Positions 4,702 through 63,435 of a stretch of DNA of 64,000 nucleotides are shown in pieces. The stretch lies in IMG/VR virus record IMGVR_UViG_3300044627_003892; one strand, written 5' to 3'. Position numbers and translations under genes: made by a program. The notes below the pieces were generated by a model that saw only the letters and a program-made list of their open reading frames with translations, did not search any database and was not told where the DNA came from. The stretch is from a virus. Its lineage: Duplodnaviria > Caudoviricetes. How positions within the stretch are numbered: position 1 is the stretch's first letter; each line of letters opens with the position of its first letter.

Positions 4702-5410
4702 TAGTAATAATCTTCCACTCCCCATTATAATCTTCCACAAGACATGTAGAGTTCTCACAGAAGTCCCCTGAGTTCATATAGTAATTCTCTATCTTCGGAT
4801 GATGAATATGTCCACATACTGCCACATCATACCCCTTCTGTTTTGTTAGACCTTTTGCGTTATCCTCAAAATCAGATACAAAGTTAATTGCCCCTTTAAC
4901 AGATTGCTTTATTGTGTTTGCTAATGAATGATATGGTAAGTTAAACCACTTTCTTATTTTGTTATATAAAGTATTAAACTTAATCACAATATCATATGAC
5001 CATCCACCGATTACCGCTAACCACCTCGCTTCCATTATAACGAAATCCAATACATCCCCGTGAAAACAAAAATACTTTCTATTATCTATTCCTGTATGTA
5101 TATACTTTCTTACAATCCTGATGTTGTTTAATTTAAATGGAATAAAATCTTTTAGGAAGTCATCGTGGTTTCCTCTTATATAAACCACCTTTGTATTCTT
5201 CTCTGACATCTTCATGAACCTTCTGAATATCTTGGTACAATCCTTTGTCCATTTACCATTACCTTTAAGAGCCCAACCATCTATTATATCACCGTTCAGT
5301 ATTAGTTTTTCCGTTGTGTTATTATCCAAGAAACTTATTATCTTATCTGTCTGTGATTGTCTTGCTCCTAAGTGTAAATCACTCATGATTATCGTTTTCC
5401 AATTATTCAT
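4694..5410 (-). CDS. LpxH/PlcP-like metallophosphoesterase (UDP-2,3-diacylglucosamine hydrolase family)
   Basis: SDLHLG, GDIIDGW, GNHD, HGD, GHIH, NSGDFCE motifs. Confidence 0.85.
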   Translation of the reverse strand: MNNWKTIIMSDLHLGARQSQTDKIISFLDNNTTEKLILNGDIIDGWALKGNGKWTKDCTKIFRRFMKMSEKNTKVVYIRGNHDDFLKDFIPFKLNNIRIVRKYIHTGIDNRKYFCFHGDVLDFVIMEARWLAVIGGWSYDIVIKFNTLYNKIRKWFNLPYHSLANTIKQSVKGAINFVSDFEDNAKGLTKQKGYDVAVCGHIHHPKIENYYMNSGDFCENSTCLVEDYNGEWKIITIS

Positions 5411-9842: not shown

Positions 9843-10214
9843 ATGAAGTATATTATTACCGAGTCACAACATAAATTAATATCCGAACTTGAAAGAACTT
9901 GGAGAGATTCTGAATATACGGAACAATACAATAGACTAAAACCTAAAATGATTCGTTATTTTGAAAATTTGGTTGATTCACATTCTGAAAATGATGTAAG
10001 ACTTAACTTATTTGATAGTGACCAAAACGCCGTAATGGTTTATAATAAACCAAGTGGTGATTTATACTATAATAGGAACTTTGACGATATATATGGTACA
10101 GCCTTTCCTCATCCCATTTGGTTAGTTCACGGCAAATTCATTATGTCAGATGTATTTAATGAGTTCTTTCCTGACTACGAAGTTAAATCAGTTAGAAGTA
10201 TAACATTATCATGA
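9843..10214 (+). CDS. MKYIITESQ-leader protein
   Basis: Leader motif. Confidence 0.7.
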   Translation: MKYIITESQHKLISELERTWRDSEYTEQYNRLKPKMIRYFENLVDSHSENDVRLNLFDSDQNAVMVYNKPSGDLYYNRNFDDIYGTAFPHPIWLVHGKFIMSDVFNEFFPDYEVKSVRSITLS

Positions 10215-10549
10215 AATATTTAATCACAGAATCACAATTAGATAAAGCAATACTCAAGTTTCTTGATAGTCAGGATTTTAATATAACTAAAATTGGTGCC
10301 AGTACATATATTTCATACCCTGAAGATGATTTTGCTCAGATTAAATATGGTGGTAATCATTCCAATAATGAATTGTGTTTTATCTATAAAGGTTTAATTG
10401 AAGCAATTTCTTCCTTCTTTTCTCTTAACAGTTATCAATCCACCAGAATTGTTGGGCAATGGGTTAAGAAAAAACTGAATTTGGAGGGTCAAATGTCCAA
10501 CAAGATAATGAGCTCCCAATGGTCGTTAAAATTACCAACTGAAGATTAA
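10211..10549 (+). CDS. MKYLITESQL-family protein
   Basis: Paralog of 4372 (AQIKY...ISSFFSL...IVGQWV). Confidence 0.8.
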   Translation: MKYLITESQLDKAILKFLDSQDFNITKIGASTYISYPEDDFAQIKYGGNHSNNELCFIYKGLIEAISSFFSLNSYQSTRIVGQWVKKKLNLEGQMSNKIMSSQWSLKLPTED

Positions 10550-18859: not shown

Positions 18860-19295
18860 TATTATGTTTTTCGTCTAAAGAAAGTAACCCCTTACCATAT
18901 TTTTCGTATCTTTCGTAGTATCTGTCCTTAACATATTGGTGAATCGGGATTGCCTTACCATCACCATCTATTCTTACAAATGTTATGAATGTTTGTGTAA
19001 CAGCTTCTTGTTTACCAGTATGAACATTATGTTTCCTAACTTCAATATATAATTTGATTGATGTCGTTCCAAACTTCTCTACCTTACCATAAATCTTTAA
19101 TAGACTTCCAATCTTAACAGGACTTTTGAAAATTAACTCATCAATCTTAATCGTGACCATTCTTGATGTATCACATATCTGTGCTGCGTATGATGCTGCC
19201 GAGTCGTCAATTAGAGACATTATCGTCCCACCGAACATGTTGTCGTGAACTCCGATATCACTCTTTTTACATATGTAAGTTGTTATTAATTCCAT
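18852..19295 (-). CDS. acyl-CoA thioesterase (hotdog fold)
   Basis: DIGVHDNMFGGTIMSLID...FKSPVKIG...TFVRID. Confidence 0.85.
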   Translation of the reverse strand: MELITTYICKKSDIGVHDNMFGGTIMSLIDDSAASYAAQICDTSRMVTIKIDELIFKSPVKIGSLLKIYGKVEKFGTTSIKLYIEVRKHNVHTGKQEAVTQTFITFVRIDGDGKAIPIHQYVKDRYYERYEKYGKGLLSLDEKHNND

Positions 19296-20320
19296 TAAAC
19301 ATTTTGAACTGAAAAATTGGCTTCAGCCTGATTGATTGATTCTGTTATTACTTTCATAATTTTGTACGGGTCAGCGTTTGCTGCAGGTCTTCTATCCTCA
19401 ACATAACCTTTCCAATTACTATTCACAGTTGTTTGTGGAACTCTTATGGAAGCACCTCTATCAGAGATACCGTAACTGAATTTACTAATAGACTGAGTTT
19501 CGTGTTTACCAGTTAACCTGAAATGATTGTTTGAACCATAGTTTTCAATATGTTTTTGGTGGTTCATTTCAAAGAAATTAAATATTGTTTCAAAATATTC
19601 TTTCCCACCAATTTCTCTCATCTTTTTGTTTGAGAAGTTTGTATGTAATCCTGAACCATTCCATTCACCATACATCAAAGGTTTTGGGTCGTATACTACT
19701 TCTACTTTATATGTTTCACAAAGTCTTTGTAATAAAAATCTACACAACCAAAGTTGGTCACAAGAATCTAACGTACCTTTACCCATCACTTGGAACTCCC
19801 ATTGTCCAAGTGCCACCTCAGCGTTAATACCTGTAACATTAAGTCCTGAGGATAAACAAACGTCTAAGTGATGTTCAACAATATCTCTAGCGACAACGTT
19901 CTCATAACCAATACCACAATAATACTCACCTTGTGGTCTCATTGTCACATCTTTAGTATGACCTAAAGGTAATTTGTTACTCCAAAGGAAATACTCCTGT
20001 TCAAACCCAACCCAAGTGTTTGAGTCGTCTTTAATCAATGAACGAGTATTAGAACTATGCGGTGTCATGTCAGGGTTAAGAACCTCACACAATACCAAAT
20101 AACCATTCTTTCTCTGTGGGTCTCTGATTATTTTTACAGGTTTTAAAAGACAATCTGAATAGTTACCTTCCGCCTGATTTGTTGATGAACCATCAAAGTT
20201 CCATATTGGGAGTGATTCTAATTCTGGTTCAGTTTCTGATGTTAAAACTTTTGTTTTACTTCTTAAGTTTGGTTCAGGAGTATATCCGTCCAACCAAATG
20301 TATTCTAACTTATATATCAT
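19295..20320 (-). CDS. glnII: glutamine synthetase type II
   Basis: KLEYIWLDG, WNFDGSST, GFEQEY, NAEVALGQWEFQ, WNGSGLHTNFS, RLTGKHET, DRGASIRVP, EDRRPAANADPY. Confidence 0.95.
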   Translation of the reverse strand: MIYKLEYIWLDGYTPEPNLRSKTKVLTSETEPELESLPIWNFDGSSTNQAEGNYSDCLLKPVKIIRDPQRKNGYLVLCEVLNPDMTPHSSNTRSLIKDDSNTWVGFEQEYFLWSNKLPLGHTKDVTMRPQGEYYCGIGYENVVARDIVEHHLDVCLSSGLNVTGINAEVALGQWEFQVMGKGTLDSCDQLWLCRFLLQRLCETYKVEVVYDPKPLMYGEWNGSGLHTNFSNKKMREIGGKEYFETIFNFFEMNHQKHIENYGSNNHFRLTGKHETQSISKFSYGISDRGASIRVPQTTVNSNWKGYVEDRRPAANADPYKIMKVITESINQAEANFSVQNV

Positions 20321-39479: not shown

Positions 39480-40808
39480 TTATTTTATTTTTATTTTCAT
39501 TTTGGTTCCACCTTCAATTTTTTCACAACTCAATTTAAAACCATGTTCTTCTAATATCGCAACACATATATTCAACCCAAGACCCTTCTCTTCACCAGTG
39601 ACATCAGCCTTCTTTGAATACTTTGTTAAATGTTTTTCAAGTTGTTTTTGTGAGAATCCTTTACCATTGTCCTCAACTATTAAATATTCTTCTTCGTTAT
39701 ATATCTTAACTTTTTTAACTTCACTATCGTTATATGATAAACCATTCTTAATTAAGTTCTCAACCGCATTACAGAATAAAGTCTCATTCACTTCCATATC
39801 ACCCAAGTCAGATATCTCAACCTGTGAACTATATGAATTTGGTGAAATGTATTTCCAAATCAAATCTTTAGCGTTAACCACAGATTTATTTAACACAACA
39901 TTTTGTTTAACAAGATTGGTAAACTCATAAACACTCTTATAAACTTTTTGAGTGTGGTTTAATCCTTCTTTAACCATCTTAAGTGCTCCTTCAATCTTCA
40001 ATCTTTGGATGTCCTCAACGGTTAATCTTTTTTCTAATGATGTAATACCTCTTGGCATGTATGTATTAATACCTGAGTGCATGTCATGTCTGATGATTCT
40101 TGCTGCGTGTTCCAAGTAACTATTCTTCTTAGCAATATCACTAATCTGTTGTTCAATCTCAACATCCTGTACTTGTATTCTCTTTCTTTGTAAGACAACC
40201 GCCAATATTAAAACAAACAGTATAACAACACCTAAAGCACCATAAAGGTATTTCTTCAAGGTCTCTCTTTGTTTTTCCAAATCAGTTTTTTCAGTCATCA
40301 AATTTCCATTCTCATCCATTAAGTCATCAGTCTCCAAAGTCAAACCGATGATATTCTTTTCTTTACTTAACGAAGTAATGGTATTTTCTTTTGATTTTAT
40401 AAGTTCTTCATTTCTTATAGCTTGAGCTAATAATAAATCTCGTTCTGCGGTAAGTTTATTAATCTTGTTATCAATTTGAACTAATACATTTTTTAAATCT
40501 TCTTTAGGTAAATCAGTATACGATTTTGGTAAGTCAGTTAAAAACTGTAAGTCTTCAGCAATACTTGCTAAATCACTTTCAGACAATTTAGTTTCATCAA
40601 CTGGTTCAGGTTCAGGTGGAATCCAAGTTGTAACGATTTCTTGTATATCCATAGCCGCAACTTGACTAGTATCACCATCAATCTGTAAATTATCGTTAGA
40701 CCATGAAACGTCAATTCCGTCAACTAATGTATCGTTGTAATTCAAATTTTGTGAGTGTAAACCTGTCGATACGAGTGTTACTAAAATCAATAATATTATC
40801 TTTTTCAT
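39480..40808 (-). CDS. membrane sensor histidine kinase
   Basis: Signal peptide, coiled coil, TM, IRHDMHSG (H box), NLIKNG (N box), DNGKG, GLGLNIC. Confidence 0.9.
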   Translation of the reverse strand: MKKIILLILVTLVSTGLHSQNLNYNDTLVDGIDVSWSNDNLQIDGDTSQVAAMDIQEIVTTWIPPEPEPVDETKLSESDLASIAEDLQFLTDLPKSYTDLPKEDLKNVLVQIDNKINKLTAERDLLLAQAIRNEELIKSKENTITSLSKEKNIIGLTLETDDLMDENGNLMTEKTDLEKQRETLKKYLYGALGVVILFVLILAVVLQRKRIQVQDVEIEQQISDIAKKNSYLEHAARIIRHDMHSGINTYMPRGITSLEKRLTVEDIQRLKIEGALKMVKEGLNHTQKVYKSVYEFTNLVKQNVVLNKSVVNAKDLIWKYISPNSYSSQVEISDLGDMEVNETLFCNAVENLIKNGLSYNDSEVKKVKIYNEEEYLIVEDNGKGFSQKQLEKHLTKYSKKADVTGEEKGLGLNICVAILEEHGFKLSCEKIEGGTKMKIKIK

Positions 40809-41425
40809 TACTTTTTTAATTCTTCTTTTAATAAACTTTTATTTTTCCAAATCCATGATTCATATCTTCGAGTTATACCATTAAAATCAAGAAACTTTAA
40901 ATTGTGAAAATAATTTGTTGCTGGTGCGAACTGCATATCAAACTCTTCTCTGAATTTTTTATATTCTTCATACTCACTTTTAGTCATTTTTTCAAAAACA
41001 AGAATTTTTCCGTATTCATGAGTGTAAAGATTGTAATCATCTAAATTCACAAAATATAACTTGTTGTATGGGGGTATAGTGTATATGAACGCTCCATTTG
41101 TAGCGTATTCCCAAAGAGTCATGTTCAATTCATCAGCCCATTTATATGTCGTATCTGCTACATATTTGATACTATCTAACATGTTAGGTATATTTTCAAC
41201 AATGTTATTTAAACTATCTATCTTATTATTTAAGGATGTGATTTTTTTACCTTGTTCTCTAATAATCCTTCTTTGTGTTTCAATTGCTTTATTAATATCA
41301 ACAGATTGTTTAACAGATAGGATAACAACAGAGTCACCTCTATAGATTGTTTGAATTGGGTATTTAATTTGACTAAACCCAAACAAAGAAATTGTTAAGA
41401 AAATAAAAGTTAGTAATGTTTTCAT
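40808..41425 (-). CDS. secreted coiled-coil hypothetical protein
   Basis: Signal peptide; lies between the two kinases. Confidence 0.65.
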   Translation of the reverse strand: MKTLLTFIFLTISLFGFSQIKYPIQTIYRGDSVVILSVKQSVDINKAIETQRRIIREQGKKITSLNNKIDSLNNIVENIPNMLDSIKYVADTTYKWADELNMTLWEYATNGAFIYTIPPYNKLYFVNLDDYNLYTHEYGKILVFEKMTKSEYEEYKKFREEFDMQFAPATNYFHNLKFLDFNGITRRYESWIWKNKSLLKEELKK

Positions 41426-42693
41426 TTAAATTTGATTTTCATTTTAGTTCCTGTTTCATTTTTTTCACAGGTTATTTTAAATCCGTGTTCTTCTAAAATG
41501 GCAACACAGATATTCAATCCTAAACCAGTACCCGATTCTTTTTGACCTTCTTTTCTGGTGTATGGTTTTGATAAATAATTAAAATCTTCTTGGGTAATAC
41601 CTCTACCATTATCCTGTATGAATATCATATCACCTTCAGAGTATATCTTAACAAACTTTGTTTCAGAGTCGTTATACTTTAAACCATTCCTAATTAGATT
41701 ATCAACTGCAGTACAGAACAATGGTTCATTCAATTCAATCGTTGGTAGGTTATCATCCAACATAACCTGACTAATGTATGCCGTCGAGGACAAATAGTCC
41801 TTGAGAATGTCCTTGATGTTAAATTCAGTTTTATTAAGAACAACATCTTTCTTTACCAGATTGGTAAATTCATAAACACCTTTATAAACTTTCTGTGAAT
41901 GCTTAAGTCCTTCCTTAATCATTTTAAGTGGTGCCTCAATTTTAAGTTTAACAATATCTTCTTGAGTTAATCTTCTCTCCAACGAGTTAACACCTCTTGG
42001 TATATAGGTATTAATACCTGAATGCATATCGTGTCTCAATATCTTAGCAGCATGTTCCAAGTATGTATTCTTTCTTTCAATCTCTTTCTTCTGTTCGTAA
42101 GAATTCGTGATATCAATAGCGATTTTCATAACACGATAAATCTTACCATCAGTATCAAAAATAGGATTGTAGGTCGCTTGTAAATAAACTAAAGACCCAT
42201 CTTTTTTAACTCTAACAATTTCCCCTGAAAATAATACACCACTTCTTAATTTTTCCCAAAAAAGACAATAATCCTCACTTTTCTCATAATCATCTTCCAC
42301 AAAAATTCTGTGATGTTTTCCAACTATTTCATCCTGTGATGGATATCCCATAGTTTTTATAAACAAATCATTGGCAAAAATAATATTACCTTCTAAATCA
42401 AATTCAATTACCGCATTAGATTTATTGATAGCGGTCATTCTATTAGTAAGTTCATTTTCTATTTTAATTAACTTATCTACAGATTCTTTAGATATTGAAT
42501 TTTTATTAGATTTGATAAAGTCTTTAATCATTAATATTGATATAGGAATTAACAAAATAAAACAAATGTATTCAATACCACGTGTAACTCTTGTTGATTC
42601 CTGTATTTCAAGTAAAACCGATGTTTTAACCAAAAAGAATACAGACATTATTAAAATAGAACAAAGTAAATAGATTTTTGTTTTTTTAGTCAT
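41422..42693 (-). CDS. PAS/PAC sensor histidine kinase
   Basis: 2 TMs, PAS (AVIEFDLEGNIIFANDLF...GKHHRIF...ATYNPI), LRHDMHSG, NLIRNG, DNGRG, GLGLNIC. Confidence 0.92.
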   Translation of the reverse strand: MTKKTKIYLLCSILIMSVFFLVKTSVLLEIQESTRVTRGIEYICFILLIPISILMIKDFIKSNKNSISKESVDKLIKIENELTNRMTAINKSNAVIEFDLEGNIIFANDLFIKTMGYPSQDEIVGKHHRIFVEDDYEKSEDYCLFWEKLRSGVLFSGEIVRVKKDGSLVYLQATYNPIFDTDGKIYRVMKIAIDITNSYEQKKEIERKNTYLEHAAKILRHDMHSGINTYIPRGVNSLERRLTQEDIVKLKIEAPLKMIKEGLKHSQKVYKGVYEFTNLVKKDVVLNKTEFNIKDILKDYLSSTAYISQVMLDDNLPTIELNEPLFCTAVDNLIRNGLKYNDSETKFVKIYSEGDMIFIQDNGRGITQEDFNYLSKPYTRKEGQKESGTGLGLNICVAILEEHGFKITCEKNETGTKMKIKFK

Positions 42694-42765
42694 ATTTCAT
42701 AAATACCTTTATTAAATAAAAAAACCCCTCAAATTAGAGGGGTTTAAACATTAGTTGGTTGTGAA

Positions 42766-44646
42766 CTACTTACCAACTTCTTCAAAATCTACATCAGATA
42801 CTTCAGAATCGTTATTCTCCATTTCGTTCATGTTGTTCATTTCAGAAGTTTGACTATAAAGATTTACAGTAATCTCTTGGAACACCTTGTTGATGTTATC
42901 AATACCTTCCTTAATCTTCTCAATATCTTTTGACGAATGAGCCGACTTTAATTCTTCAAGAGCTACAGTTACCTCTGACTTTTGTTCTTCCGTAATCTTG
43001 TCTTCAATATCTTTCAAAGACTTTTCCACTTGGAAGATTGTTGTGTCAGCTTGGTTGATAACCTCAGCATCTTCTTTTGCTTTCTTATCTGATTCAGCGT
43101 TCATCTCCGCTTCCTTCTTCATCGTTTCAATCTCTTCTTTCGAAAGTCCTGATGATGATTCAATACGGATATTTTGTTGTTTGTTAGTTCCTTTGTCAAG
43201 AGCCGATACATTGATAATACCATTAGCATCAATATCAAACGTTACCTCAACCTGTGGAATACCTCTTTGTGCCGGTGGGATACCATCCAGGTGGAAACGT
43301 CCAATACTTCGGTTGTCTTTCGCCATTGCTCTCTCACCTTGTAATACATGGATTTCAACGGTTGGTTGGTTATCAACTGCAGTTGAGAATACCTGTGACT
43401 TCTTGGTCGGGATAGTAGTGTTCGCTTCAATTAACTTTGTGAATACTCCACCCATAGTTTCAATACCAAGTGATAGTGGTGTTACATCTAATAACAATAC
43501 ATCTTTAACATCACCTGCTAATACACCTGCCTGAATTGCTGCTCCAAGAGCAACAACCTCATCAGGGTTAACACCCTTTGATGGTTCCTTACCGAAGAAC
43601 TTCTTAACTGCTTCCTGAATTGCCGGAATACGTGTTGTTCCTCCAACCAAAATGATTTCGTCAATATCACTTGTCTTAATTCCTGCGTTCTTCAATGCCG
43701 ACTTACAAGGAGCAATAGTTCTTTCAACCAAACTATCAACAAGTTGTTCAAACTTAGCCTTAGTTAAAGTTCTTACCAAGTGTTTCGGTATACCATCAAC
43801 AGGCATAATATATGGTAAGTTAATCTCCGTAGATGGTGAAGAAGATAATTCAATCTTCGCCTTCTCAGCTCCTTCACGAAGACGTTGAAGAGCCATAGCA
43901 TCTTTGGTCAAGTCAATTCCGTTTTCATCTTTGAACTCTGTAACCAACCAGTCAATGATTGCTTGGTCAAAGTCATCACCACCAAGGTGTGTATCACCAT
44001 CAGTAGACAATACTTCAAAAACACCATCACCAAGTTCCAAGACAGATACGTCATGTGTTCCACCACCACAGTCAAACACAACAATCTTCATATCTTTAGA
44101 TTGTTTGTCCAATCCGTAAGCAAGTGCCGCCGCAGTTGGTTCATTAACAATTCTCATTACTTTCAAACCTGCAATCTCTCCAGCTTCTTTCGTAGCTTGA
44201 CGTTGAGCATCGTTGAAGTATGCTGGTACCGTGATAACTGCCTCAGTTACCTCTGAACCCAAATAGTCCTCAGCAGTTTGTTTCATCTTTTGGAGAACCA
44301 TTGCCGAAATTTCTTGTGGTGAATATTTTCTATCCTCAATCTCAACACGAGGAGTTCCACCATCACCCTTAACTACTTTATAAGGAACACGTTTAACCTC
44401 ACCCTTACTTTCATCAAAACTTGTTCCCATGAAACGTTTGATAGATGAGATAGTCTTATCAGGATTAGTAACCGCCTGACGTTTAGCAGGGTCACCAACC
44501 TTTCTTTCACCACCATTTAAGAAACCCACAATTGAAGGGGTGGTTCTTTTTCCTTCACTGTTTGTAATTACAACTGGTTCGTTACCTTCCATTACGGCAA
44601 CACATGAGTTAGTTGTTCCAAGGTCAATACCTATAATTTTTCCCAT
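42766..44646 (-). CDS. dnaK: molecular chaperone DnaK
   Basis: [50 protein letters not shown]. Confidence 0.98.
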
Positions 44647-59471: not shown

Positions 59472-60245
59472 TCAAAAAAAATTGAGGTCGGAGTTGGAAG
59501 AATTATCTTTATTAAATTTATCATTCCATTCTTTTATCCTTGAAATAAGTTCATCAATAGTAATTGAGCAAGATGTTTTTTTTACACTATTTTCAGAATA
59601 CTTTAATAATTGACAGTTTGCCGGATGTTTTATTATTTCAGGGTCTATTTTATTAATGAAACCTTCTTTAACTGAATACATATGGTCCTTACTGACCCCA
59701 TTTAAATTATTACCTTTATTTGAAGGACTATACCATCCTAATTTTTTTAAATCAGTGGTGTTAAATTCTGCTTCAAAAGTTTTGAAGTCAAAGTCAAATT
59801 CACAAGACGGTCTATAAAACTTATAATATTGGTATCTACAATCATCACAAGTTATTTTATATTTTGGTATTTTTTTTTCAAGATTACAAGAACGACATTT
59901 TTTATTTTTTTCTTTTACCGGCCCATAGTGTTTTTTTAATGATTGACTTATTTTATTCTTAACATCTTCTGTCAACCCATTTCTTTGTAAATTATTATAA
60001 GAAGCTGAACAATTTAAAGAACAAAAAAATCTTTCTTCACTAATATATGAAACAAATTCATCACCACAATACTTACAACTTTGTTTATGACTTTTAGATG
60101 GTAATTGTGATTTTAATTTTAACCTAAAACAACGATTGTTAATTGTTTTTTTTGACACGCCAAAAATTATAGATATTTCTTTGTGTGTTTTACCTTCTTG
60201 GATTAACTCCTTTAAGGTATTATCATTTTGTTTAGTCCATTTCAT
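59472..60245 (-). mobile_element. free-standing HNH-like endonuclease
   Basis: HTH-like N-terminus, CxxC...FCSLNC zinc motifs, SKDH...HPANC...EN..K; located in the tRNA cluster. Confidence 0.55.
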
Positions 60246-60293
60246 ATCTATAAATATATGAAAATGAGTTTTTTTCATAGTTGAACTTAATTG

Positions 60294-60381
60294 AGTGTTC
60301 GGTCAGATTCGAACTGACGATGTTGCTATTAACAAAACCAATTTTGCAGATTGGCGGTTTCAACCACTCACCCACGAACAC
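60294..60381 (-). tRNA. tRNA-Cys(GCA) with long variable arm
   Basis: ccaat-ctGCAaa-attgg, U73 discriminator, ~19-nt extra arm. Confidence 0.75.
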
Positions 60382-60408
60382 TTATAATTTAATACCAAAA
60401 AAGTCAAG

Positions 60409-60496
60409 AGGAGAGCAACAGACTCGAACTGTGCCCAACTTAATGGGTTACTGTTTAGCAAACAGTCGGGGACACCATTTCCCTCCTTTACTCTCC
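60409..60496 (-). tRNA. tRNA-Ser(GCT)
   Basis: actgt-ttGCTaa-acagt, long variable arm. Confidence 0.8.
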
Positions 60497-60500
60497 AATG

Positions 60501-60575
60501 TGTGTCTAGCGGGATTCGAACCCGCGATGACCTGAACCACAATCAGGCGACTTAAACCTCTTGTCAATAGACACC
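60501..60575 (-). tRNA. tRNA-His(GTG)
   Basis: cctga-ttGTGgt-tcagg. Confidence 0.8.
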
Positions 60576-60581
60576 GTGTAG

Positions 60582-60664
60582 TACCCCCTGTAGGACTCGA
60601 ACCTACACGTCTTTAAGACAATTGTTTCTAAGACAACTCTGACTACCAGTTCCAGCAAGGGGGT
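60582..60664 (-). tRNA. tRNA-Leu(TAG)
   Basis: gttgt-ctTAGaa-acaat, long variable arm. Confidence 0.85.
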
Positions 60665-60671
60665 AAATAAG

Positions 60672-60758
60672 CGGAAGAGATAGGACTCGAACCTACACAT
60701 CAGTTTCCCGATACCGGTTTTCAAGACCGGGGCGATACCAATTACGCTTTACTCTTCC
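60672..60758 (-). tRNA. tRNA-Ser(TGA)
   Basis: ccggt-ctTGAaa-accgg, G73 discriminator. Confidence 0.88.
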
Positions 60759-60763
60759 AAGTT

Positions 60764-61020
60764 CCCCACCTGAGATTACAGTGAGTAGATTTTAACGGGT
60801 TACTCTGACTGTTTCGAGAACCATCACTATTCTGGGTTCGACGCCAGACCTAGCTTTTTCATTAGTGTCTTACCACATAAAAACCTGTCAATCCTATACG
60901 TCGGAGCTGCGGATATGCTTCACTTTAACCCGAATCGATTCCCCATTAAGGTCGGGGGCTTTTTACTACCACTACTTTTTTAAAGAATGTAGCCAATCTT
61001 GCCGAGTATCTCTTACTCAT
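60764..61020 (-). ncRNA. unidentified structured RNA, copy 1 (257 nt)
   Basis: Highly similar to 61921-62177 with compensatory changes; strand assumed from the flanking tRNAs. Confidence 0.6.
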
Positions 61021-61022
61021 TG

Positions 61023-61211
61023 CAATCAGAACAGGATTCGAACCTGTATGATGTATTTCCCTTACATCTCGGAATTAAGAGTATCATAGAAACAACTTAA
61101 TCCTACTAACTTACTTGTTGCGTCTACCAAGTTAACATTGACCCCGTAGTGGATTCTAACCACGCTATTTTTACATCTAGAACGGGGTTGTTAACATTCC
61201 GCCACCTGACT
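61023..61211 (-). ncRNA. tRNA-Leu-scaffold RNA with large central insert and nested D-loop insertion
   Basis: agtcagg..GGCGGAA^..TTGGTAGACGCA..(~70 nt)..acagg-TTCGAAT-cctgt-tctgatt. Confidence 0.6.
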
Positions 61212-61276
61212 ATTTTTTTTCTCCCCATATTAACCATCCTATGATGATTCCAATTACAATACCTGATACCATATCC

Positions 61277-61594
61277 TTATCGTTTTGTTATTTCTTTATA
61301 GTTAGAAACAAGTTTATCCAAAAAATTTACCAACTCTTCATTAGACATATCACCCATCCAATATTCGTCAGGTATTGATGTCACATCATCTCCCTTTGCT
61401 GATATGGAAATTCCATTGATTTCACCAATCATTCTTGAAACACATTGGTGAGGACCATCCTCAACTTCAATATAACCATTTGGGAATGTTATACCCCATC
61501 CTGTTGATCCGTCAACATATAATTCATATATCCCAAGGTTGCATGACTTATACAAAAATTCACTTTTAAAAGGTGTTTCAAGTGTGTTATTCAT
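61277..61594 (-). CDS. hypothetical protein
   Basis: 105-aa ORF after a caaagata promoter motif. Confidence 0.55.
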   Translation of the reverse strand: MNNTLETPFKSEFLYKSCNLGIYELYVDGSTGWGITFPNGYIEVEDGPHQCVSRMIGEINGISISAKGDDVTSIPDEYWMGDMSNEELVNFLDKLVSNYKEITKR

Positions 61595-61650
61595 TTGACA
61601 AAGATATGAATACTTTTCCGATATTCCTAATCTTTTTTGATGTTTTTTAG

Positions 61651-61733
61651 TACTCGGAGCGGGAATCGAACCCGCACTCCCTATGGGAACATCATTTTAA
61701 GTGATGCGTGTCTACCTGTTCCACCATCCAAGC
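61651..61733 (-). tRNA. tRNA-Leu(TAA)
   Basis: catca-ctTAAaa-tgatg, long variable arm. Confidence 0.88.
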
Positions 61734-61771
61734 GTTTAATCATTAACAATACGTAAAAGAACTTTGTTTTG

Positions 61772-61844
61772 CGGTCCCAACGGGATTCGAACCCGTACCT
61801 CGCACCGTGACAGGGTGGTATTGTAGCCATTCAACCATGGGACC
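61772..61844 (-). tRNA. tRNA-Asp(GTC)
   Basis: cacc-ctGTCac-ggtg, G73 discriminator. Confidence 0.85.
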
Positions 61845-61920
61845 AAGTTTATCAGTCTTTCCTGATCGTCACCTCTAACCCACAGGTATGAACCCGTATT
61901 GTAGTGAAGCTTGGTTTGCT

Positions 61921-62177
61921 CCTCACCTGAGATCTCAGTGAGTAGATTTTAACGGGTTTCTCTAACTATTTCGAGAACCATATCCCCTTCTGCCTTTCGC
62001 TCAGTCGGTCTTTTTCATTAGTGTCTTACCACATAAAAACCTGTCAATCCTTTACGTCGGAGCTGCGGATACGCTTCACTTTAACCCGAATCGATACCTC
62101 ATTAAGGTCGAGGATTTTTTTACCACCACTACTTTTTTACAGAATGTAGCCAATCTTGCTGAGGATCTCTCACTCAT
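61921..62177 (-). ncRNA. unidentified structured RNA, copy 2 (257 nt)
   Basis: Paralog of 60764-61020; starts just 3' of tRNA-Glu. Confidence 0.6.
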
Positions 62178-62179
62178 TG

Positions 62180-62251
62180 TAGTCGGTACGGGATTCGAAC
62201 CCGTGTGACAAGAATGAAAATCTTGTATCCTAACCCCTAGATGAACCGACC
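62180..62251 (-). tRNA. tRNA-Glu(TTC)
   Basis: caaga-ttTTCat-tcttg. Confidence 0.85.
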
Positions 62252-62258
62252 ATCTATG

Positions 62259-62328
62259 TGGACACTGTGGGAATCGAACCCAAACGATCTGATTGCAAAT
62301 CAGTCTACCTGCCGTTGGCATCAGGCCC
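62259..62328 (-). tRNA. tRNA-Ala(TGC)
   Basis: ctga-ttTGCaa-tcag; G3:U70 present, acceptor stem imperfect. Confidence 0.65.
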
Positions 62329-62333
62329 ATTTG

Positions 62334-62406
62334 AGCGGGAGAGGGGACTCGAACCCCCAACAACCAGTTTGGAAGACTGGAACTCTACCAATTGAGCTAC
62401 TCCCGC
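62334..62406 (-). tRNA. tRNA-Gly(TCC)
   Basis: ccagt-ctTCCaa-actgg, U73 discriminator. Confidence 0.9.
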
Positions 62407-62621
62407 AATTGTGACTACTCCTTGGGAAGTTTCGTCACGTTTTACGTGAATGGGGTGATCAAACCTACTTACATCACGGTTGTAAGTTTATACGTTAAAC
62501 TATCAACATAAAACGTCAGTTTTTAACGACCAAAACTGAATAAACGGCTTATCTCTTTGGAACCCCTTTTAAAGTGTGTGTCCCTACCATCATAAGCTGA
62601 TCCCTACTGTTAACACTCCCG

Positions 62622-62702
62622 TACTGATGGTTGGATTCGAACCAACGTTTGCAACTTACCTCTACAGGTATGGACGATATAAGCGTCCACTGGTACATCA
62701 GC
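62622..62702 (-). tRNA. atypical D-arm-less tRNA, anticodon TAT (Ile?)
   Basis: Acceptor gctgatg/catcagt, 7-nt linker instead of a D arm, ggacg-ctTATat-cgtcc, extra stem, canonical T arm. Confidence 0.5.
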
Positions 62703-62708
62703 ATTTAG

Positions 62709-62780
62709 TTGCGGGAGAGGGATTCGAACCCCCGACCTCAAGGTTATGAGCCTTGCGAGCTACCACTGCTCTATCCCGCG
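62709..62780 (-). tRNA. tRNA-fMet(CAT)
   Basis: C1:A72 mismatch, caagg-ctCATaa-ccttg. Confidence 0.88.
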
Positions 62781-62785
62781 ATATG

Positions 62786-62901
62786 TAGTCAGGACAGGAT
62801 TCGAACCTGTAATAAGAGAGGTCACTTACCGCTGATGGGACTTATACCATCACCCTCTGTATTGCCATACCACGTTGCGTCTACCCTTCCGCCACCTGAC
62901 T
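62786..62901 (-). ncRNA. tRNA-Leu-scaffold RNA with structured central insert
   Basis: agtcaggTGGCGGAAGGGTAGACGCA..(~63 nt)..acaggTTCGAATcctgtcctgact. Confidence 0.6.
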
Positions 62902-62987
62902 ATGTTCCTCGTCTTTCCGAGGTGTCAACTACTTGCATTTTGTTTAATTGCAACAACTCAATGCCAATCCTCTTATAGCCGATTTGG

Positions 62988-63143
62988 TAGTCAGAACAGG
63001 ATTCGAACCTGCACGTACACTTGAATCCTACCTAAATGATGTTCTCCATCAATCTACTGTCATCGTTAATGGATTCAAACCATTCAACTCTTGTAGTATC
63101 GGTTTTTACTTAGTGTAGCGTTTACCAATTTCGCCACCTGACT
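62988..63143 (-). ncRNA. tRNA-Leu-scaffold RNA with ~100-nt central insert
   Basis: agtcaggTGGCGAAATTGGTAAACGC-tacac..gtgta..gcaggTTCGAATcctgttctgact. Confidence 0.6.
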
Positions 63144-63157
63144 ATGTTATTAATCTT

Positions 63158-63179
63158 TCAAAGAACTTCAACAAAGATA
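63158..63179 (-). promoter_or_regulatory. TAnnTTTG promoter + boxA-like element heading the tRNA operon
   Basis: TATCTTTG (63172-63179) then GTTCTTTGA (63158-63166); another GTTCTTTGA at 63231-63239. Confidence 0.5.
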
Positions 63180-63435
63180 TAGCAACTTTTTCATTCTGCC
63201 TAATCTTTTTTAATCTTTTTTACCAATAAATCAAAGAACCTAAAAACAAAAAACCCACCTCTTTTGGAGATGGGTTTGAAATTTATATATGTAAATTATC
63301 ATACCATCTCCATATAGGAACGATCCTCAGCTATCGCCAATCCGCCTAATAATATGATATGTAAATTTTTCATTTGCGTTTTTATTTGTTTTTTATAATT
63401 ATACCACACTTTTAAAAAGTGTCAAGTTTTTTAAA

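Follow-up and report, generated by a model that had tools for sequence, protein, structure and literature searches.

The 64,000-nucleotide (nt) stretch of viral DNA considered here (IMG/VR record IMGVR_UViG_3300044627_003892; Duplodnaviria, Caudoviricetes), called the window below, carries on its minus strand two related elements of 257 nt, copy 1 at 60764-61020 and copy 2 at 61921-62177, within a run of tRNA genes. Each copy is, with a probability of roughly 0.8, the gene for a compact and stable non-coding RNA belonging to an uncatalogued phage family, and when the guess at a function in trans is left aside, this explanation can be held slightly more firmly still. It is carried by compensatory base changes, by the constant position of the element beside tRNA genes and by its recovery from RNA libraries.

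A first-pass annotation, made from the letters of the window, had described the two elements as equal-length paralogs with long identical blocks and no convincing open reading frame (ORF), and both descriptions hold. BLAST aligns the copies over 260 columns with 86.5% identity (E = 3.8e-82), the identical blocks reappear in a MAFFT alignment, and a repeat search lists them as families D2, D3 and D6. The frame opened by the 5′ AUG has between 6 and 60 codons, depending on the relative, and its conservation does not extend beyond the first hairpin, for which reason its coding potential was rejected and the element is regarded as non-coding.

Comparative evidence for the fold

To gather relatives, conserved blocks of the element served as exact patterns for scanning IMG/VR, and a profile search (nhmmer) followed. 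The first scans yielded six close relatives at about 90% identity and later scans many distant ones; the 5′ 17-mer TGAGTAAGAGATACTCA has at least 120 matches in IMG/VR. Locus L004, picked up with a 17-mer, was set aside as a chance match inside GC-rich coding DNA. Over the loci collected, the profile search gives at least 159 matches, at least 101 of them distinct and full-length. Most of these 101 members (77) are 200-222 nt long and the rest 250-285 nt, the typical length being about 205 nt. The window copies belong to the long kind, which has an extra variable hairpin.

The fold is numbered here after a 205-nt member, L361:3607-3811. It begins with a 5′ hairpin and continues with two H-type pseudoknots in tandem and four other hairpins; a pairing of 4-5 bp links the 5′ loop to the 3′ loop. 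The 5′ hairpin H1 (2-7 with 13-18) has the loop AGAGA. Pseudoknot 1 follows, with 20-24 paired to 33-37 as stem 1 and 28-32 paired to 45-49 as stem 2, and then pseudoknot 2, with 50-53 paired to 66-69 as stem 1 and 57-61 paired to 76-80 as stem 2. H4 (83-87 with 111-115 and 93-96 with 107-110) contains an AAUAAA bulge and leads into a joining strand with conserved GUA and UUGAC and then a U tract. H5 (138-140 with 144-146) has an A-N-G triloop, H6 (151-156 with 167-172) is GGUUUU/AAAACC, and H7 (183-188 with 200-205) forms the 3′ end. The loops of H1 and H7 are joined by GAGAU at 9-13 and AUCUC at 193-197.

This fold has been examined in alignment A4, a MAFFT alignment of 62 sequences that were collected through the H1 17-mer and not fitted to any structure. 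Standard pairs occupy 83.4% of the cells; sliding the 3′ partners by 1-3 columns lowers this share to 39-51%. The covariation score is 0.273, compared with 0.075-0.142 for the slid partners. Both sides change in 35 of the 53 pairs, and column shuffles never reached the observed values (0 of 500). Collecting homologs and checking their covariation was what the first-pass annotation had recommended, and its view of the element as a conserved structured RNA is borne out by these results. The fold is under selection at the RNA level.

The pairs are kept throughout the molecule. Across the 62 sequences, the paired share is 98% for H1, 87 and 82% for stem 1 and stem 2 of pseudoknot 1, 88 and 76% for the lower and upper stems of H4, 79% for H6 and 85% for H7. 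Changes on both sides are present in H4 and H7 and affect four pairs of H6, and in stem 2 of pseudoknot 2 all five pairs change on both sides across the family. The closing pair of the H5 triloop switches from U-A (29 sequences) to G-C (27 sequences); stem 2 of pseudoknot 1 appears in relatives as GGUCGC/GCGAU, GGUCAC/GUGAU or GGCCGC/GCGGU, and the lower stem of H4 as CGAU/AUCG or CGGU/ACCG. G-U pairs, which would be A-C on the opposite strand, are frequent (one pair of H7, for example, is U-G in 53 of 62 sequences), and the strand of the element is therefore fixed as minus. Two other helices were tried and rejected, since one side changes in relatives without compensation: a long-range P1 between 5′ UGAGUA and 3′ UACUCA, and the RNAalifold helix CGGGUU/AACCCG. 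Their segments are parts of the local hairpins H7 and H6.

The pairing between the terminal loops is invariant in the A4 set. When 83 distinct sequences are aligned by means of a model, both loops are seen to switch completely with the pairing intact, to GGGU/ACCC in L172, AAGAC/GUCUU in L109, GAGG/CCUC in L106, UUAGA/UCUAA in L140 and GAGAC/GUCUC in L139 and L094. Such covariation is compatible with pairing inside one molecule or between molecules. It would thus fit equally well an RNA-only assembly in which the 5′ loop of one molecule pairs with the 3′ loop of the next to give head-to-tail rings, chains or cages, and the complementary loops do lie at both ends of the molecule and stay nearly invariant while other stems drift. 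There is a precedent in ROOL and GOLLD, kissing-loop homo-oligomers whose covariation was first read as tertiary contacts (PMC12286853). An assembly of this kind is nevertheless distinctly unlikely here: with 205-285 nt the element is far below the size of ROOL (about 580 nt) or GOLLD (about 800 nt), it matches neither model in Rfam, and a simple closure of the two ends within one molecule accounts for the same covariation.

Covariance model R1, built from A4 with 211 positions, matches copy 1 along all of the model (95.5 bits, E = 1.3e-33) and copy 2 with 73.5 bits (E = 1.8e-25), with no other match in the window. In copy 1, H1 (61003-61019; UGAGUA AGAGA UACUCG) presents the 5′ loop-loop partner GAGAU at 61008-61012. 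In pseudoknot 1 (60970-61000), stem 2 pairs GGCUAC (60989-60994) with GUAGU (60971-60975) and stem 1 is AAGA/UCUU; in pseudoknot 2 (60941-60971), stem 2 pairs CCCC (60954-60957) with GGGG (60941-60944) and stem 1 is GGU/ACC. The stem 1 helices of both pseudoknots are assigned in the window copies by homology. H4 (60901-60933) has a UCGG/CCGA lower stem, an A-rich bulge and a short upper stem, and the conserved UUGAC (60887-60891) precedes H5 (60854-60884; UUUUUAUGUG GUAAGA CAC UA AUGAAAAA), which is identical in copy 2. The 3′ part is made up of the variable expansion hairpin (60827-60853; UCUGG CGUCGAAC CCAGA), H6 (60798-60822; GGUUCUC followed at a distance by GAGUAACC) and H7 (60764-60785; CUCACUG UAAUCU CAGGUGGGG), with the 3′ loop-loop partner AUCUC at 60772-60776.

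Copy 2 lies on the same strand. Its H1 (62160-62176; UGAGUG AGAGA UCCUCA, loop GAGAU at 62165-62169) contains one U-C mismatch, and its H7 (61921-61942) presents AUCUC at 61929-61933 and includes CUGAGAUCUCAG, which is also a 12-nt palindrome. In pseudoknot 2 (62097-62128), CCUC (62110-62113) pairs with GAGG (62097-62100). The covarying stem noticed in the first-pass annotation, cccc/gggg in 60941-60957 against cctc/gagg in 62097-62113 around the same attaaggtc loop, is thus real and corresponds to stem 2 of pseudoknot 2. Its second structural observation, a peripheral hairpin replaced as a whole between the copies, is likewise real and concerns the variable expansion hairpin, which lies between H5 and H6 and is absent from the 205-nt members: a GAAA-capped hairpin (61982-62009) stands in copy 2 and in all close relatives in place of the hairpin of copy 1, with the same form in L001, L003 and L005. 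On the plus strand, 60827-60853 resembles the T arm of a tRNA (TCTGG GTTCGACG CCAGA), the RNA being antisense to such an arm, and the variable hairpin of copy 1 may be a captured and inverted tRNA fragment.

Position beside tRNA genes and presence in RNA libraries

The minus strand is also the strand of every tRNA found in the window by ARAGORN and Rfam, and, as the first-pass annotation had stated, each copy begins on it within a few nucleotides of a tRNA 3′ end. Copy 2 starts 2-3 nt beyond tRNA-Glu(UUC) (62179/62180-62251; called by ARAGORN, and by Rfam with 57.8 bits), which has no encoded CCA: its discriminator A is followed by CAA and then by UGAGUG. Copy 1 starts 2-3 nt beyond a tRNA-Leu-like gene with a long insert (61021-61213), which was read from the sequence by its 7-bp acceptor pairing, Leu-type D arm and GGTTCGAATCC T arm, and which neither ARAGORN nor Rfam calls; the same tRNA-Leu-like 3′ end precedes the element in L003 and L005-L007. 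On the 3′ side, 5 nt separate copy 1 from tRNA-Ser(UGA) (60671-60758; ARAGORN), and a 76-nt module intervenes between copy 2 and tRNA-Asp.

This arrangement is a property of the family. A tRNA or tRNA-Leu-like gene adjoins 93 of the 101 members, on both sides in 56; the dinucleotide CA stands directly before the element, after the tRNA discriminator, in 76; and the gap to a downstream tRNA is 5-9 nt throughout. All of the 1000 tRNAs called by ARAGORN in family loci lie on the strand of the element. The flanking isotypes vary, the commonest being Asp upstream and Ser(UGA) downstream, the latter in 15 of the 64 cases with a called downstream tRNA. A few members stand alone. In one of them, L176, a run of eight U residues lies directly behind H7 and resembles a terminator; in another, L139, which adjoins a T4-like portal gene, the sequence behind the 3′ hairpin is A-rich and has no U run.

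The fixed geometry of these junctions suggests a route by which the RNA could be released. tRNAs without an encoded CCA are trimmed after the discriminator by enzymes of the RNase Z/BN type, as has been established for T4 tRNAs in Escherichia coli, and RNase P cuts at the 5′ end of a tRNA. The element would be transcribed as part of a tRNA precursor and cut out by the tRNA-maturing enzymes, a release that the first-pass annotation had also supposed. An enzyme of the RNase Z/BN type, cutting behind the discriminator of the upstream tRNA, which lacks CCA, would set its 5′ end, and RNase P, cutting where the following tRNA begins 5-9 nt past the 3′ hairpin, would set its 3′ end. Once released, the RNA would have both ends protected by its terminal hairpins. 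A gene of the CCA-adding-enzyme family is present in all four near-complete carrier genomes.

RNA libraries contain the element. Four metatranscriptome runs from lakes and other freshwater were aligned on 60300-62420, and in three studies the RNA libraries gave contigs that match the element with 99-100% identity. The longest of those described here (416 nt, 61821-62236) bridges tRNA-Asp, the 76-nt module, copy 2 and tRNA-Glu; others are of 292 nt (61873-62164), 133 nt (60865-60997) and 127 nt (61924-62050). These contigs establish presence in RNA libraries and are not proof of a processed species. Co-transcription with the tRNAs, as had been proposed in the first-pass annotation, is well supported, if indirectly, by the 416-nt contig and by the common strand of the 1000 tRNAs. 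Sixteen further RNA-library runs contain 22-48% of the sampled words of copy 1 and were not counted as cover. An ORF between the copies (61223-61577) is uncovered in all four aligned runs, in which the element and tRNAs are covered; missing cover is not evidence. Another metatranscriptome contig, X21, joins 61213 to 61924, so that a copy 2-like 3′ end is followed after 7 letters by the start of a tRNA-Leu-like gene. This joint matches the gene order of L001 and L002, and X21 is therefore ascribed to a related phage in the same water and not to a rearrangement here.

The same junctions could be read as the work of a catalytic RNA for tRNA maturation, which would cleave near its own 5′ end or act on phage tRNA precursors in trans. 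The start fixed at 2-3 nt from the tRNA discriminator in most members, the conserved CA before it and the complex pseudoknot-rich fold with invariant unpaired nucleotides would all suit such an activity, and theta ribozymes offer a precedent adjoining phage tRNA 3′ ends (PMC10879173). Against it, the first helix is a plain local hairpin, so that the fold is not like that of the hepatitis delta virus (HDV) ribozyme, and the models for HDV-like, hatchet, twister, pistol and hammerhead ribozymes all gave no match at E up to 10. Every tRNA that theta ribozymes process requires one of its own, and the element occurs once per genome beside 20 or more tRNAs; L176 and L139 are without an upstream tRNA; and a contig from an RNA library crosses the junction uncut. 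Catalysis is on this balance quite improbable.

A purely cis-acting role is scarcely to be expected, in which the element would space the tRNA operon (as a processing insulator, pause site, terminator or internal DNA promoter) and have no function as a free RNA. The terminator-like 3′ hairpin and U run of L176 and the nearly invariant TTGAC motif inside the element are what could be said for it. No conserved −10 element lies behind TTGAC, stand-alone copies occur outside arrays, there is one element to an array of 20 or more tRNAs, and a spacer would need far less than some 205 nt folded into two pseudoknots and closed by a long-range pairing of loops.

Several points weigh against regarding each copy as the gene for a stable, structured RNA. 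The evidence for the structure is comparative and does not come from single-sequence energy, which is no better than that of shuffled sequences (z = −0.62 and −0.10). In the window copies, stem 1 of either pseudoknot has only 3-4 bp, and members were collected with motifs from the element itself, which inflates the apparent conservation of the scan motif. Copy 2 may be less fit, given the mismatch in H1 and the palindrome in H7, which could compete with the loop-loop pairing. Contigs cannot show the starts, ends, strand or abundance of an RNA, and RNA libraries can contain DNA; the contig that crosses the junction of tRNA-Glu and copy 2 unbroken represents either a precursor or DNA. As for partners, no conserved protein neighbour was found around family members, the neighbours of the stand-alone copies (PPK2 and the T4-like portal) following no pattern, and a Ro60/TROVE protein is present in only one of five carriers.

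The surrounding array holds further structured or tRNA-like segments, all on the minus strand. The 76-nt module between copy 2 and tRNA-Asp (61845-61920) is 88-90% identical in seven other loci; it lies within 1-2 nt 3′ of a family member in L104, L151 and L159 and about 90 nt beyond one in L351 and L319, and is also present in L329 and L348. Covered by RNA-library contigs, it looks like a second small RNA module. tRNA-Leu-like genes with inserts of 40-120 nt occur at 61021-61213, 62786-62901 and about 62988-63150, with the acceptor AGUCAGG, the D arm GGUGGCGGAAU and a normal T arm; Rfam calls only 62786-62901 (36.4 bits), and about 40% of family members have a gene of this kind as an immediate neighbour, either upstream or downstream. 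Between tRNA-Gly and tRNA-Met, about 300 nt without an ORF (62407-62707), conserved at 76-86% in L331, L094 and L340, probably hold further small RNAs. At 60400-60495, a tRNA-like segment with the acceptor GGAGAGC/GCUCUCC and a loop giving the anticodon GCU (Ser) is called by neither ARAGORN nor Rfam.

Distribution of the family and origin of the two copies

The first-pass annotation could assign the element to no known family, and the searches agree with it. With Rfam 15 at gathering scores, the window and 12 homologous loci gave only tRNAs and tmRNAs lying elsewhere; at E up to 10, the region 60200-63300 and a 251-nt stretch with a typical member gave only tRNAs and noise. The models unmatched include those for GOLLD, ROOL, HDV-like ribozymes, group I introns, RNase P and tmRNA. 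Distant-mode BLAST with copy 1 and a short member against 50,697 GenBank phage records found no match, and the nearest virus record compared (G001, 18% complete) has none to the element. The family is new relative to Rfam 15; a catalogue of structured RNAs from IMG/VR holds 8,495 unnamed candidates (PMC10690425), which lie outside that comparison.

Outside phages the element is nearly absent. Among 185,579 bacterial and archaeal species (GTDB, one genome each), the 5′ 17-mer has seven matches: four are the bare 17-mer, L404 is below threshold, L401 is a 50-nt partial match, and only L406 is genuine, a copy truncated where its 4.4-kb contig, from a metagenome-assembled genome, ends. The family is in effect confined to phages. 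As for the habitat of its carriers, 82-93% of the sampled words of the window are present in eighteen DNA runs from lake water, and the window encodes thymidylate synthase, T4-type RNA ligase 1, Hsp70, two histidine kinases and a glutamine-synthetase-like protein; the window is therefore taken to come from a freshwater jumbo-type phage, and the carriers are phages, mostly freshwater jumbo phages. Of these genes, those for the glutamine-synthetase-like protein, for Hsp70, which is full-length, and for the histidine kinases, of which one has a PAS domain, lie at 19295-20320 and 39480-44646.

Large genomes carry the element once. In IMG/VR, one strong copy is present in each of five records of 140-465 kb, of which four are 93-100% complete, and one of the five has in addition a weak partial match of 19.8 bits. 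The two diverged copies of the window are unusual compared with the single copy in relatives. They fall into separate groups: copy 1 (type A) is nearest to L003, L005 and L125, and copy 2 (type B) to L001 and L002, with 95% identity. The two are old paralogs, or one of them came by recombination.

That types A and B are each nearer to copies in other phages than to one another might also point to a mobile or recombining cassette that targets tRNA 3′ ends, so that the copies would reflect insertion or exchange and not a function in the operon. Adjoining tRNAs of many isotypes and small ORFs of unknown family within the array would be in keeping with this, yet it is very improbable. Large genomes hold a single strong copy, a repeat search found no terminal repeats or target duplications, and no integrase, transposase or endonuclease is associated with the element. 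The covariation shows selection on an RNA fold, and mobility would not exclude an RNA function.

Related systems and possible function

In kind, the closest systems are two small stable RNAs of the tRNA cluster of phage T4, rnaD (species 2, 119 nt) and rnaC (species 1, 139 nt); for the family RNA, the contigs in RNA libraries give a hint of stability. Like the family, they lie on the tRNA strand and start shortly after a tRNA 3′ end, at 1-2 nt, rnaD one nucleotide after tRNA-Arg-CCA. rnaD (AF158101, 71053-71171; L413) begins with AUGAG and contains UGAGUAAG and GGUAAG, short motifs also found in the family, and the phage of L139 combines a T4-like portal protein with a family member. No homology with rnaC or rnaD is detectable: R1, run with filters off over T4 69000-74000, gives at best 4.8 bits, outside both genes. 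The T4 RNAs have half the size of the family RNA, rnaC ends in a tRNA-like T arm, and the two pseudoknots with loop-loop closure that make up the fold of the family are not known for either.

ROOL (RF03087) and GOLLD (RF01998) are RNAs of phages and prophages, "often near tRNA islands", that form kissing-loop homo-oligomers and RNA-only cages (PMC12286853). The family shares with them the phage location by tRNAs, an elaborate pseudoknotted fold, complementary loops and the lack of a known protein partner, oligomers having been seen for ROOL and GOLLD only. These two are two to four times larger and are unrelated to the family in sequence and secondary structure; neither model matched the window, the 12 homologous loci or the 251-nt stretch with a member at E up to 10.

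Theta ribozymes, which occur in gut phages infecting Bacteroidota and Bacillota, have a minimal HDV-like fold with a double pseudoknot and cleave within 1 nt of a tRNA end (PMC10879173). Both they and the family place a structured RNA at the 3′ end of a CCA-less phage tRNA, and theta carriers, too, often encode a CCA-adding enzyme (PMC10879173). The family RNA differs in having about three times the size, a fold unlike that of HDV and a single copy per genome; it begins 2-3 nt from the tRNA end and is of freshwater origin. A nested double pseudoknot of the HDV type (P1, P1.1, P2, P3 and P4), in which P1 opens at the cleavage site and has its second strand 3′ of P3, was rejected for it, the first helix being a local hairpin (2-7 with 13-18) that is almost fully paired across the sequences.

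Other likenesses are more distant. The pRNA of phage phi29 forms, by pairing between molecules, a ring at the portal of phi29-like podophages; it is not known to be linked to tRNA genes. It resembles the family as a phage RNA of similar size with two complementary loops and a covarying pairing between them; no sequence similarity is seen. tmRNA (RF00023), which belongs to the translation apparatus and is at times encoded by large phages, is rich in pseudoknots too, but ARAGORN and Rfam are negative for the element, its ends form separate hairpins, and it has no acceptor stem, T arm, CCA or conserved tag frame. Two family-bearing phage loci contain a full tmRNA near the tRNA array, L126 at 9849-10255 (83.8 bits) and L081 at 4975-5349 (53.3 bits), and these phages carry the family RNA as a separate gene. 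A group I intron was rejected, there being no Rfam group I match at E up to 10 and the element lying between complete tRNAs, not inside one; bacterial RNase P RNA was rejected, with no model match at the same limit. Two resemblances to RNase P RNA were dropped as well: GGUAAGA, which resembles a conserved RNase P sequence, is in reality the A-N-G triloop of H5 with its switching closing pair, and a P4-like AACCCG was not upheld.

What the RNA does can be proposed only tentatively. By analogy with T4 rnaC and rnaD or with ROOL and GOLLD, it might be a trans-acting architectural or protein-binding RNA that takes part in the take-over of tRNAs and translation by the phage. That it represents a new class of protein-independent large functional RNA, either self-assembling or a new ribozyme, is unlikely; if it did, it would form rings or cages through its loop-loop pairing, as a small cousin of ROOL and GOLLD, or act as a ribozyme on pre-tRNA, and in either case freshwater jumbo phages would have it as a single-copy core gene.

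Stable RNAs other than tRNAs are a known kind of product of phage tRNA operons, and among them the element defines a new family. Large RNAs with a comparably conserved tertiary structure are rare, and those that are understood are mostly ribozymes or core parts of the translation apparatus. The family joins T4 rnaC and rnaD, ROOL and GOLLD as phage RNAs of tRNA clusters whose purpose is open, in the case of T4 for about fifty years. It merits an entry in Rfam, which would fill a gap in the annotation of jumbo phages. At about 205 nt, its members are short enough for chemical probing, crystallography and cryo-electron microscopy, and they are diverse enough for a reliable model, so that the question of what non-tRNA RNAs do in phage tRNA operons becomes more tractable.

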